A stretch of DNA of 32,000 bases from Promethearchaeota archaeon (GTDB taxonomy: Archaea > Asgardarchaeota > Lokiarchaeia > Sigyniarchaeales > Promethearchaeaceae). The notes under the pieces are model-generated. The model saw nothing but the letters and a program-made list of their open reading frames with translations, was not told the DNA's origin and searched no databases. Positions 24,383-32,000 of the stretch are shown piece by piece. Made by a program: the position numbers and the translations under genes. Position 1 is the stretch's first letter; each line of letters opens with the position of its first letter. The stretch covers positions 164,675 to 196,674 of the forward strand of contig JAFGBS010000019.1 in the NCBI GenBank assembly GCA_016933055.1, in the 5' to 3' direction.

Positions 24383-27300
24383 ATGCGTAAGAAGCACTTA
24401 AAAGTCATGATTATTCTCTTAATTTTTACGATCAATCTTGTCGGTATCGCCTCTCAAATAGGAATACAACCAACATTTTATTCCAATCCCCGAACAATTG
24501 TTAATCCCCTAGCTCAAGATTATGAAACAAACTCATCGGGAAGTGTAGATGTTGTAATCACCACTATTGAACAAGGTTATAAGAACGAAAGTATCGTGTT
24601 AATTGACCAAGACAACACATCGTTTACAGCACCTGCTCCGAATGCGACTGGGTATGAGACATCTTATGCCAAAATTTCGGTTAAAGATATTGCTGTATCC
24701 AATTACACTTATATTATTGAAGATGATGAACGCACTGACGCAAATTTAATCGATGAAAACAAACCAAGAGTAACATCATTTACCGTTCCAACCAGTTGTT
24801 ATCTCACGAACGCGAGCTTTGATGTTAGATATCAAGGGTCACCTGATGATTTACAAGTAAGAATTTATAATTCAAGTTGGAGTAGTATTGAGACAACAAA
24901 TAAGCCGGCAGGGTTATATGATTTTACATATTTAGGAAATATCACAGTAGATAGTGCTGGATGGAAACATTTGACTGATTTGGAGTTTTATCTCAATAAT
25001 TCTAACACAGATAATAATACTTGGTATATAGGATTATTTGATTTTAACACTGGATCTTTCGATGGATATTGGTATTATAATGAAGATGAATCAAGTGGGG
25101 ATGGTGAAGATGAAACATTATCGTATGAATGGACGGTTCTTGGTTGGAAATTAGTCACGGATAATGAAAAAACTATTGATTTTAGATCCATAGTCGGTTT
25201 ATCCTTAAAAAATCCAACTCCAGCACCCACTCTAATTAATCTGCAGATAAACGGAACTTCTGTTAGTAATAATACTTTAATACCTGATAATAATAGCGGT
25301 ATTTGGGAAAATTACAACAGTTACCATGGTCATGATAATGAACTCAATTTTTCTATTACTGCTGATTGGTTTTCTTATTCCCTAAGTGTTAATCAGACAT
25401 TAGTGAATTATACAAGCTCGTTTAATGCAATCACAACATATACTGCCGAGAGTGGTGTAAATGTATTTTGGAACGCGACTTCAGAAATTAACAAGTTTGA
25501 TCATAGACTTGAAAACAATACCGTTAATTTCACCATACCTCTAAGTTGGAACACCCCCCTTTCAAGTTTAGAAAGAGATTCAAGTTCAATTCCATCCTAT
25601 TCTACCTATACAAATAGTACAGCTAAAATTATTACAGTTCGCGGAATCAATGCTATTGATGGCAATTGGACCCTTCTTACAATATCTTCAAATCTTTTGT
25701 CTAATATTAAAATTGGAGTTAATGGAATAGAGTCAAGTTATGCTTATGTCAATGAAACTCTTCAATTCAATGCAACATTTTCAAAAGCCGTGACTGGAAC
25801 GGTAAACCTAAGTATATATCATCCTACATTGGATGATGAAATGATATTCACAAATGAGCTTCCGATCACTGATTCCGATTTTATTGATCTCTCGACCTTT
25901 GATATTGATGTCGAAAATTTAGCAACAATTTCTGATTATGGGATATATCGGGTGCAAGTGAGATGGGACAATCATACCGATGTTGGAATAATTGATTCTA
26001 CTGTAGTTATCGCTGCAAACACATCAGTGATTGTATTAACTCCCCCTGGTCACGAGACCCTTACTATAGATAGTCCTTATAACATAAGTTTCCAGTATTT
26101 AGATGAATTTAAATTAGTCAATGTTACAGGAGCCACAATCGGCTATAAAAATGCAACTGGTCAATGGAATTCTGAGGTTCAATTAAATCTGGATGAAAGC
26201 TATAATATAACTATTAACCCTGCAGATTATTCTTCCGGAACTCATCTTATACCAATCACTCTAAATAAGACTCATTATATGAACCACACATTCACGTATG
26301 AGTTTAACATCGTAGAAGCAAGTCAAATCTATAAAAACCTTGGAGATAGCATTCTTATAGTCGAGAGAGGAAACAATGCTACGTTTCGTTTGAACTACAA
26401 CAGAACTAGTGATGAATTTCCTATCGAAGATGCGAACATTAGAGCAGTTTCAATTAATCCTACTCTTGAATGGAGCTTTATGGATCTTAGTGGTGGGGAC
26501 TACATTATTGAGATTAATACATCTGCAGTAGATGCAGATCTAAGCCCTTTCAATTGTATTTTTAATATAACACTTATAAATGCGACAGTAGGGTATCAAA
26601 CTCAATTATTTGATTTCGACTTAATAGTCACTGTTGCTCAAACAAGTTTGAGTTTAACCAGTCAGACTGATATAATTGCCAGGAATTCTGGTAAGAATGC
26701 TACTATTAATTTTCACGTGGAAGATACAACCAATTCGATGGATTTAGAAGGAATCCCTGACTCCTATTTCTATGTCTATAATGATAGTACATCTTTATTA
26801 TGGGATGTTGGCACATTTAACTGGGAAGTCTGGGAAATTGGATCGGGAGAATATGGAGTAAATATCAGCTTGTTTGGTCTCGATTACGGAATGCAAACCG
26901 TGAGATTGAATGTTTCCTATTCTCCAAATTATAATTTTAGTGTGTTAATAACTTCATTTTACCTTCGCGGAAATTATACAGAAATCGACATTAAAGAATT
27001 TAATAACAATGCTGGAATTGTCATCCCGAAAGTAGAACAGACTTATCAGATTTATTTAGACACCTCTGAAGTAGGATTGATTTTGAATTTGAACGATTTA
27101 GAAAATGAAAATCAATTTATTTCAGATAGCGGTGGAATCTTTCAATACTGGGCTTGGTTTAATGATACCCAACCATTAACTACTAATTTCATTTATGATA
27201 GAAATAATGATGAAAATGTGGGTTCTATTACACTGCCTTCAGGATTAAACGTGGGATCTGGAAATATCACCCTAACAATTGGCAAGAAAAATTATGAAAA

Positions 27301-29736: not shown

Positions 29737-32000
29737 ATGAAATTATCAGCAAAGAAACATCTAAAGAAATTTTTCAGAAACACTGGAATTTTGATATTCG
29801 TGTTAATTATTATAACGAGTTCCCAAGCTGATTTTGTTTCTCATCATCATAAATATACAAATGATGTGGCTCCTAACGAGGATATCATTCACGCTTTATC
29901 CGATTCTAAATCCCCATTACAAGATTCAAGTCTAAATTCAGGCTCAGTTAATGTTTCAATTAAACAAACTTATTCTAATGAAACAGATATAAATATAAAT
30001 CAAGAGACAACATCATTTACAACATCCGCACCTATGGATAAAGATTATTTATCATCAACTATCAATATCAGTGTAAAAGATATCAGCATCCATAATTATA
30101 CAGATATTCTTGAGGATAGTGGAAGATATTGGAGAAAATTAGTTGATGAGAATAAACCCTTAGTCACTTCATTTACCGTACCAATTGACTGTTATTTAAC
30201 AAATGCAAGTTTTGATATGAGATTATCTGGTACTGCAGACGATCTGAGGGTTAGAATTTATAATTCTACATGGGATAGTGATAACAGCATAAGTAAACCA
30301 AGCGGATTCAATGATTACGTATATTTGGGAAATATAACCGTAGATAGTTCTGGGTGGAAAGATCTTACAAACATTAATCATTACTTAAATAATTCAAATA
30401 CAGATAATAATACTTGGTTTATTGGTCTTTTTGATTTGAATACAGCGACTTTTGATGGTCTTTGGTACTATAATGCGGATGATAACAATGGTGATAATGA
30501 AGATGAGACTCTATCTTATGAATGGACAGTATCTGGTTGGTCTTTAGTTATGGATGGTGATACCGTAGATTTTCAAACAAAAGTTGGTTTAAGTTTAAAC
30601 ACAACTACACCTGATCCAACGGATATAAACCTACAGATAAATGGAACCATCGTAGATGATACTACAAGCAATAAGGGAGAATGGATTGACACTAATCCCT
30701 ATTCAGGAAGTAATGGAAAACTAAATTTCACATTTTCGGCAGATTGGTATGATTTTTCTTTAAAGGTGGATGAAGTAACCATAGATTTCACAAAAAATAC
30801 CTTTGATGAACGTGTTGAATATAGCGTAGATCTAAACCAACTGGTATACTGGAATGGTTCAGTGAATATTTCGGAATTTGAATCGCAATTCAGCGACAAT
30901 GAGATTAATTTTACCATTCCTTATGATTGGTCAATATCGGATCTACTTAATGAATCCACTTCCATAACCTATGCAACAACTAGCTCAGCATCAACGAAGA
31001 CAGTACATGTAACGGGTTCTTCTGCGACCAATGGTAAATGGAAGCTAAAAGCATCCAGCCAAAATTACGGATCCTCGATTTCCAGTTATGTTGATTCGAA
31101 TCCAATCAGTGTTGCGAATTTTAGCAACGATGTGACATTCCGAGCTTTATTTGATGGAGAGATTTCGGGGGATGTGAATATCAGCGTATATGATCCCTCA
31201 CAAAACATGAAATATACTTATGTAAATTCATCGGTAGAAAAAAAACAAACAGTCTTCTTTCCTGCATACGACCTTAGCGACAATGTTTCGGAATATGGAA
31301 TATATTCAATACGTTCAAAATGGATGAATTCGACACATATAGGGTATTGGGAACAAAATTTCACCGTACTTGCTGATACTGCCTTAAATTTAATATCTCC
31401 CTCTCTAGATGCTATTTTTAATCCTACTGATAGTTTTACAATTATCCTCTATCTTGAAGATATCGGGATATTCACACCGATGGATGGAGCAACAATTTAT
31501 TATGATATTGATGGAACTGGGCAACTAAGCATCTCAACCAATAATGGCACTTCAGGATATTATGAGATCCCGGTGGATTGTAATACTATTATTGGAAATG
31601 GAGATAAAACTGTTGAAATCACTTCAAATAAGACTTTTGTTAACAATCAGACATTGGATTTTACCTTTCATATCAATAGTCCACCAGAAATCCTCAGTCC
31701 CACAACCATAGAAGAGGATTCTCGATGGATTCAGGATGAAGATTTCGGCTTTTTTGATTTCGATTTCACGGCCTTTGAAAATGACATTGAAGATTCGGGA
31801 ACGGATCTAGATTGGTATATAGAAGATTTAGACTCAAATCTGGTTACTGTGAGTGGAGAATATTCGGATACAGATATTCTTAGATTCACTTCCGTCCTGA
31901 ACGCCTACGGAACCGACACCTTTACCTTATGGCTGGTAGATTCGGGGGGATTAACGGATTCCGTATCTATAACTATCACCATTAATCCCGTAAATGACGA
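29737..32000 (+). CDS. Large surface protein, paralog of 24383-29659, with a cadherin-like/Ig repeat; 3'-truncated by the window edge and absent from the ORF track
   Basis: ATG 29737 (MKLSAKKHLKKFFRNTGILIFVLIII signal) opens a frame of 754 codons with no stop before the window end. About 550 N-terminal residues align with the upstream gene. The frame ends in NSPP...EDF...DIED...NAYG...DSGG...PVND. Confidence 0.9.
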   Translation, partial: MKLSAKKHLKKFFRNTGILIFVLIIITSSQADFVSHHHKYTNDVAPNEDIIHALSDSKSPLQDSSLNSGSVNVSIKQTYSNETDININQETTSFTTSAPMDKDYLSSTINISVKDISIHNYTDILEDSGRYWRKLVDENKPLVTSFTVPIDCYLTNASFDMRLSGTADDLRVRIYNSTWDSDNSISKPSGFNDYVYLGNITVDSSGWKDLTNINHYLNNSNTDNNTWFIGLFDLNTATFDGLWYYNADDNNGDNEDETLSYEWTVSGWSLVMDGDTVDFQTKVGLSLNTTTPDPTDINLQINGTIVDDTTSNKGEWIDTNPYSGSNGKLNFTFSADWYDFSLKVDEVTIDFTKNTFDERVEYSVDLNQLVYWNGSVNISEFESQFSDNEINFTIPYDWSISDLLNESTSITYATTSSASTKTVHVTGSSATNGKWKLKASSQNYGSSISSYVDSNPISVANFSNDVTFRALFDGEISGDVNISVYDPSQNMKYTYVNSSVEKKQTVFFPAYDLSDNVSEYGIYSIRSKWMNSTHIGYWEQNFTVLADTALNLISPSLDAIFNPTDSFTIILYLEDIGIFTPMDGATIYYDIDGTGQLSISTNNGTSGYYEIPVDCNTIIGNGDKTVEITSNKTFVNNQTLDFTFHINSPPEILSPTTIEEDSRWIQDEDFGFFDFDFTAFENDIEDSGTDLDWYIEDLDSNLVTVSGEYSDTDILRFTSVLNAYGTDTFTLWLVDSGGLTDSVSITITINPVND

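Follow-up and report, generated by a model that had tools for sequence, protein, structure and literature searches.

Probable old gene conversion of a lectin-like head between two differently built surface proteins of a Lokiarchaeia archaeon

Gene conversion homogenises the N-terminal ligand-binding domain of the CEACAM paired receptors (PMC8860441, PMC7042247) and limits divergence in the TLR1/TLR6 tandem pair (PMC2077338), and ectopic recombination among surface paralogues yields chimeric alleles of the yeast FLO adhesins (PMC3512402). Here we describe a comparable locus in a Promethearchaeota archaeon, on a 32,000-nucleotide stretch of DNA (the window) that forms the last 32 kb of contig C27 (JAFGBS010000019.1) in an assembly of 3.76 Mb and 36 contigs. 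Two genes lie there head to tail: gene 1 (A; 24383..29659, + strand), which is defined by its open reading frame (ORF) and translation and encodes 1758 aa, and gene 2 (B; 29713..31998, + strand), whose ORF is open at the contig end, 762 codons from a GTG at 29713, with a likely start at the ATG at 29737, where protein P0005 (754 aa) begins. A first-pass annotation had noticed a strongly conserved block within these otherwise diverged paralogues and had favoured purifying selection over recent copying as its cause. We consider it probable that, through an old internal gene-conversion tract, two surface proteins of different build came to bear a single kind of lectin-like head.

Like the CEACAMs, the two genes would encode adjacent single-pass surface glycoproteins that hold one fast-evolving, membrane-distal domain in common via conversion and differ in their stalks and tails. 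Unlike the CEACAMs, with their IgV head and immunoreceptor tyrosine-based inhibitory or activation motif (ITIM/ITAM) tails, they have a predicted jelly-roll head, an archaeal host, a longin module set against a short acidic tail, and a tract that is old. The TLR1/TLR6 pair likewise consists of type-I membrane paralogues with a converted inner segment, but its fold is that of leucine-rich repeats and its converted part is not the variable, ligand-specific one. In the FLO adhesins the N-terminal lectin-like domain is reshuffled relative to the stalk, as here, although these are eukaryotic, subtelomeric genes for glycosylphosphatidylinositol-anchored wall proteins with a PA14 head.

The homogenised tract and its history

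The block singled out by the first-pass annotation (24755..25156, + strand, residues 125-258 of gene 1; 30148..30549, + strand, residues 146-279 of gene 2) is in frame in both genes and aligns without gaps, with 95 of 134 residues (71%; 96 in the earlier count) and 279 of 402 bases identical. Identity in the homologous flanks is 32% overall, close to the 30% first estimated: residues 259-650, on the downstream side, reach 31%, and the upstream side about 41-51%. BLASTP aligns the entire shared module, the first ~650 residues, at 40% identity (668 columns, E=3e-133), and their likeness is therefore not due to chance. The block itself is real, but its limits were drawn too narrowly: the homogenised tract covers residues 98-293 of gene 1 (24674..25261, + strand), which hold the predicted jelly-roll head at residues ~106-276, and residues 119-313 of gene 2 (30067..30651, + strand), at an alignment offset of 21 residues. 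Within it identity is 67-71%, against 34-42% upstream and 24-35% downstream; when gene 1 (W_A) and gene 2 (W_B) are compared by region, it falls from 0.67-0.68 in the head (98-293) to 0.35 in the middle part (294-439) and 0.24 in the tail (440-660). Six N-glycosylation sequons stand at matching positions in both heads.

Residues ~98-293 are also the only stretch of gene 1 that is closer to gene 2 than to every other member of the family. The block is 71% identical to gene 2 and only 31-39% identical to all other members, whereas residues 259-650 of gene 1 are 37-49% identical to orthologues and 31% to gene 2. The tract is thus internal, with both of its sides (residues 45-97 and 294 onward) following orthology: the gene 2 equivalents of gene 1 residues 45-97 and 294-660 are 50-52% and 63-79% identical to B orthologues and 33-38% identical to A. 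Between species the head evolves faster than the rest of the module, since orthologue pairs (among them one intact B orthologue, P0012) share 0.49-0.57 of their residues in the head as against 0.66-0.79 in the middle part and 0.67-0.68 in the tail. Across 69 representatives of the family, residues 125-258 are among the less conserved stretches and residues 320-540 are better conserved, and by these comparisons the jelly-roll domain appears to be the family's variable part. The first-pass annotation had allowed that the block might be a buried core common to many paralogues; this was ruled out, as the genome holds two copies and the domain is variable family-wide.

Trees built from the two ends of the module contradict each other. 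In the head tree (98-293) a single clade (support 98/95) unites the heads of both genes, A and B, from the window and from its nearest relative, L038 (ENA ERZ25039603 contig_11451), whereas the tail tree (440-660) joins W_A to the A gene of L038 (L38_A) and W_B to its B gene (L38_B), each with support of 100/100. For the tail, the approximately unbiased (AU) test rejects a grouping of W_A with W_B (log-likelihood difference 263, p=4e-6; p=0.004 in an earlier run) and also a grouping of all four sequences together (p=2.5e-6). For the head alignment, a single clade of all B-type genes is rejected only marginally (p=0.043), and a grouping of W_B, L38_B and P0045 is not rejected (p=0.096). L038 is a noisy, frameshift-ridden long-read contig, which was read by frameshift-aware alignment. 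Taken together, the internal tract, the fast-evolving head and the tree conflict argue for gene conversion, and not for extra constraint or a 5' duplication. The head clade supports conversion in the common ancestor with L038, and a further conversion in the window's lineage is likely, because the heads of W_A and W_B are more alike (0.67) than those of orthologues (0.49-0.57). The four-head clade is placed among the A-type heads of the family tree, which hints at transfer from A to B.

The synonymous sites of the window bear on the age of any copying. By the Nei-Gojobori method, the block has a proportion of synonymous differences (pS) of 0.743 and its flanks have 0.736-0.743, while the proportion of nonsynonymous differences (pN) is 0.20 in the block and 0.47-0.50 in the flanks. 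Codons redrawn at random from the genes' own usage give a pS of 0.767+-0.063. The first-pass annotation had pointed to different synonymous codons at identical residues, and these are indeed found at 45 of the 95 identical block residues; the same-codon share is 0.53, with 0.50+-0.04 expected from codon usage. Even between the window genes and the orthologues of the nearest relative pS is still 0.68-0.69. Synonymous sites are saturated in block and flanks alike, and synonymous divergence (dS) therefore cannot discriminate in the window. Recent copying in the window is excluded by these randomised sites; old copying and pure selection are not separable from the window DNA alone. The sliding-window comparison of nonsynonymous with synonymous divergence that had been proposed was computed, and is informative only in the tandem pairs of relatives; there, and not in the window, pS of the head tracts lies far below that of the tails.

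The converted region includes the same jelly-roll domain in all of the clear cases, namely four of six tandem pairs, and in a fifth, weak one (L038), whereas the equally homologous tail is never within it. The pair in the closed genome G010 has a head pS of 0.00-0.04 over residues 336-416, inside a mosaic of 0.2-0.5, and a tail pS of 0.6-0.75. In G025 residues 141-300 are nucleotide-identical, with 98-100% identity to ~374 and a head pS of 0.00-0.07, and the G034 pair shares 85% of amino acids in the head (pS 0.21) and 45% in the tail (pS 0.59). For all three pairs tail pS is about 0.6-0.75. The syntenic tandem pair of L033 shows no homogenisation, with 25-40% identity throughout. The limits of the tract differ by genome (98-293 in the window, about 54-430 in G010 and about 74-460 in G025).

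When unlinked paralogues within one genome are compared, five of seven comparisons show a head that is clearly less alike (24-32%) than the middle part and tail (39-85%); pairs in G064 and G002 are uniformly low (23-35%). The jelly-roll domain thus appears, from the sequence comparisons, to be an exchangeable cassette, unlike in dispersed copies and repeatedly made alike in tandem neighbours.

Three further observations concern the head region and its carriers in relatives. The two copies of G129 (L046 and L047, on G129:C176 and G129:C79) are 77-85% identical in the middle part and tail (pS about 0.3) and 25% identical in the head, the reverse of the pattern in the window, which would fit an exchange confined to the head. 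The B-type neighbour of P0013 (L033 13555-17946) has an insertion of ~140 aa in its head region, where the alignment jumps from residue ~229 to 401. The B-type gene of G010 (L029 4879-9565, - strand) is represented by two ORFs of 656 aa and 916 aa that overlap by 35 nt, and may reflect a frameshift, a programmed shift or two genes.

The head, its two carriers and their locus

A 411-residue model that includes the head, obtained with AlphaFold2 (AF2) from a 63-sequence alignment, has a predicted local distance difference test score (pLDDT) of 91.8 and a predicted template modelling score of 0.83, and predicts a beta jelly roll at model residues 67-237, i.e. residues 106-276 of gene 1. Its best structural match in a domain-level VIA-align comparison is the lectin-like domain of Cwp84 from Clostridioides difficile (4ci7_A, Z 15.9, root-mean-square deviation (rmsd) 3.1, 156 residues aligned), followed by a PBCV-1 capsid protein (8h2i_bG, Z 14.6), phage baseplate and tail-tip proteins (Z 12-14), Ca2+-dependent carbohydrate-binding modules (CBMs) of the CBM36/35/6 families (Z about 8-9; CBM36 1ux7_A with Z 8.5, rmsd 2.6 and 100 aligned) and Eph ligand-binding domains (Z 8). 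The Cwp84 domain (4ci7) and CBM36, CBM35 and CBM6 (1ux7, 7ay3, 3zm8) have the same jelly-roll topology as the head at 8-14% sequence identity and with no Pfam match, a likeness of fold alone; the jelly rolls of phage baseplate, tail-tip and capsid decoration proteins match equally well, so the fold is generic. The domain that follows the head resembles CnaB-type pilin or adhesin domains (Z about 7). The whole 411-residue model gave only multi-domain matches with low template modelling scores in Foldseek, and a shape search of the ESM Atlas gave weak, mixed ones. Pfam returned nothing over its cut-offs for the head, stalk or longin region, and no family for residues 100-300 at E up to 10, which leaves distant kinship possible. 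The structure prediction called for by the first-pass annotation thus yields a lectin/CBM-like jelly roll at the membrane-distal end.

The acidic loop that the first-pass annotation had likened to a Ca2+-binding loop lies in the model between two strands. Four of its positions, placed around a variable insert, are well kept (D235, D243, E244 and D266 are D, E or N in 87-100% of 63 family members), which bears out the conserved acidic character; the loop would be compatible with a metal site, without proof of one, and metal binding itself is suggested by likeness of fold. When the two heads were modelled as a complex, with residues 95-297 taken from gene 1, residues 116-317 from gene 2 and an alignment supplied for each, the score was 0.00, no answer and evidence neither way.

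Gene 1 has a predicted layout of a signal/anchor helix, a sequon-rich ectodomain of ~1090 aa, one transmembrane (TM) helix and a 640-aa cytoplasmic module. The TM helix (27665..27736, + strand, residues ~1095-1118) is a hydropathy peak with the sequence WILYGVLIAVGLSLAVVAIQQGIV, followed by KPRKKK, and the distribution of N-x-S/T sequons supports this topology, since the ectodomain has 51 of them and the cytoplasmic part has 1. A cytoplasmic longin-fold domain follows (27803..28183, + strand, residues ~1141-1267; AF2 pLDDT 81), for which Pfam gave no match. Its model matches the longin domain of Sec22 (3egd_C, Z 12.2, rmsd 2.9, 121 aligned) and also VAMP7, synbindin and a Lokiarchaeota longin (8yqg_B, Z 10.3). 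Beyond a winged-helix-like region, the protein would end in C-terminal three-helix MIT/TPR-like repeats (28640..29656, + strand, residues ~1420-1758), with weak Pfam MIT/TPR matches below the cut-off and Z scores of 9-10 to MIT domains, which is weak for helical folds. A literature search for Asgard transmembrane proteins with a roadblock and an extracellular domain found no paper. The cytoplasmic longin-containing module (27665-29659) has ~10 weaker relatives elsewhere in this genome (C27:26-751, C28, C10, C35, C6, C5, C17 and C11; tblastn E 1e-3 to 1e-26), which makes the tail a multi-copy module independent of the head.

Gene 2 carries, behind its version of the module, a first Big_9/cadherin-like repeat (31672..31998, + strand) that is cut by the contig end and matches Pfam Big_9 at E=7e-4 (20.8 bits, below the cut-off of 23.6). 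This repeat occurs in tandem on contig C22, and the L038 orthologue has more than 10 copies of it. An open frame of 2479 codons at the end of C22 (G000:C22:about 207100-214566, minus strand) starts within the same repeat, at 65-77% identity, and has at its own end a TM helix and a long tail rich in acidic residues and lysine. Gene 2 probably continues on C22, where the contigs would join, and with this continuation it is probably longer than 3000 aa. The first-pass proposal of a signalling receptor paired with a cadherin-like adhesin thus stands as regards predicted architecture, gene 1 being modelled as a single-pass protein with a longin module and gene 2 as a carrier of Big_9/cadherin-like repeats.

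An exhaustive, profile-free search (E<=1e-3) placed the family in 158 representative clusters. Within the order, 105 of the 154 genomes searched carry it, mostly in one copy; the same-genus genome G001, which is 76% complete, yielded none. The proteins span about 600 to 3000 aa, and the ~600-aa module is nearly always near the N-terminus, starting at residue ~270-640 in a dozen or so representatives; at least 38 representatives have the cytoplasmic module of gene 1. In the window's own genome, a search for further copies across the contigs of the assembly found genes 1 and 2 and no third.

Orthologues of gene 1 occupy the same syntenic locus (P-type ATPase, ATP-grasp_5, giant gene) in several relatives, including closed genomes, one of which has a syntenic 2581-aa orthologue (L032 4433-12178, minus strand). 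In the window this locus is marked upstream by a P-type ATPase gene (20430-23387) and an ATP-grasp_5 gene (23514..24212, + strand, by Pfam), neighbours that recur in G009, G010, G011, L033, L034 and L036. We treat these two genes as markers of the locus and make no claim of a functional link to the surface genes. In L033 (4804-5856, - strand) and L034 (955-2124, - strand), an Arf/Ras/Roc-type small GTPase gene of 350-389 aa lies between the P-type ATPase and ATP-grasp genes, just upstream of the longin-tailed surface protein; there is none at that place in the window. At most, this arrangement hints at a small GTPase as a partner of the longin module. Elsewhere in the window, a lone 5S rRNA gene stands among protein-coding genes (4623-4742, - strand; Rfam RF00001, 65.5 bits).

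An independent public re-assembly of the probable source sample has a single contig across both genes with zero differences, and an assembly artefact was ruled out by this contig together with the 31% base difference between the tracts. Pieces identical to both genes were also found in the hot-spring metagenome of a second study, from another year than the sediment sample probably behind the assembly, and the same strain seems to be present in the two sampled habitats. Two metatranscriptome runs, both from one study, yielded no contigs for this part of the DNA, a result that carries no evidence on expression either way.

Competing explanations

We propose that the two genes arose long ago as tandem paralogues and belong to a family of type-I membrane glycoproteins that is confined to no existing annotation and is found in Lokiarchaeia. 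The N-terminal ~600-aa module of these proteins, with a lectin/CBM-like jelly roll inside it, would occupy the distal tip of a long Ig-like stalk. DNA for residues 98-293 of gene 1 would have been copied between the neighbours by internal gene conversion before the window's lineage and its nearest relative parted, and probably a second time in the former. Since then the synonymous sites would have been randomised while ~70% protein identity was retained, so that the same tip would now be displayed by two proteins, one receptor-like with a longin tail and the other a giant adhesin with Big_9 repeats. The existence of the tract, the kind of domain that it encodes, the disagreement of the head tree with the tail tree and the recent conversion of the same region in relatives are established. 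On the structural models we infer that both heads may recognise the same, probably glycan, ligand, possibly in a Ca2+-dependent way. By analogy with paired receptors such as the CEACAMs, one carrier would attach the cell and the other would connect to cytoplasmic machinery of the longin type; matched specificity would be the selective reason for the conversion, with signalling through the longin tail.

Several points weigh against this reading. The window holds no direct DNA trace of copying, as pS in both block and flanks equals the codon-shuffled expectation. The branching order among the four related heads is not fixed (AU p 0.34-0.53), and with it neither the timing relative to the split from L038 nor the direction of transfer; the frameshifts of L038 may, moreover, inflate its branch lengths. 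Ligand and Ca2+ binding by the heads are suggested by fold likeness in the models, and the conversion could be a neutral by-product of the tandem arrangement.

This last possibility, in which the conversion is real and the matched heads are without functional meaning, strikes us as rather doubtful, though it is the strongest of the alternatives. Conversion of tandem paralogues is common and does not need selection, the limits of the tract vary by genome as described above, and one tandem pair (L033) has gone without it. Yet the same jelly roll, and never the tail, was converted clearly in four of the six pairs and weakly in L038, and the heads of the window kept ~70% identity while their synonymous sites were randomised, which argues for constraint without being proof of selection for matching. 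Less probable still is the explanation of the first-pass annotation, in which no DNA was transferred after an ancient duplication and the head is simply the part under the strongest purifying selection. It can draw on the saturated dS of the block, which shows no copying in the window DNA, on the lower pN there (0.20, as against 0.47-0.50 in the flanks), and on the six sequons and the acidic loop kept in both genes. As a cause of the 71% identity beside ~30% it is contradicted by the conflict of head and tail trees (AU p=4e-6) and by the recent conversion in relatives' tandem pairs; the head is, moreover, among the less conserved parts family-wide and between orthologues (49-57%, versus 66-79% in the rest), and the default, as seen in the L033 pair and in unlinked paralogues, is a head identity of ~25-35%. 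We regard it as very improbable that gene 2 is a chimera, formed in a single step when a partial duplicate of the 5' part of gene 1 became joined to an unrelated stalk. The same head on different stalks, and the position of the head clade among A-type heads, are what such a fusion might leave; the tract, though, is internal, its gene 2 sides follow B orthology (50-52% and 63-79%) rather than A (33-38%), and the A-B tandem arrangement exists in relatives with unlike heads.

Gene conversion of the head being the preferred account, one may extend it, speculatively and with low confidence, to a role in recognition. The head would be a hypervariable determinant for contact with the cell's own kind or with syntrophic partners, and adhesin and receptor would have to match so that one partner triggers both attachment and an intracellular response via longin/GTPase-type trafficking; conversion would keep the pair matched while the head diversifies between lineages.

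Implications for Lokiarchaeal surfaces

Candidatus Lokiarchaeum ossiferum has no S-layer and bears unidentified 'complex surface proteins' (PMC9834061), and cultured relatives are reported to be without an ordered S-layer (PMC9834061, PMC11284389). Such proteins of Loki-type archaea are thought to mediate the cell-cell contacts that are central to models of eukaryote origin (PMC9834061). The family described here has a predicted architecture that would protrude from a single membrane, and is a concrete candidate for the complex surface proteins of cultured Loki-type archaea. The exchangeable, fast-evolving lectin-like tip, and the tandem partners repeatedly given the same cassette, offer handles on what these cells recognise. 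The main form of the family, in which the tip is coupled to a cytoplasmic longin module, gives a handle on the wiring from surface to interior. Gene conversion between tandem surface-protein genes is an ordinary mechanism; the reading in terms of matched recognition, if true, would mean that the prokaryotes most closely related to eukaryotes have their own archaeal equivalent of paired or polymorphic recognition receptors.

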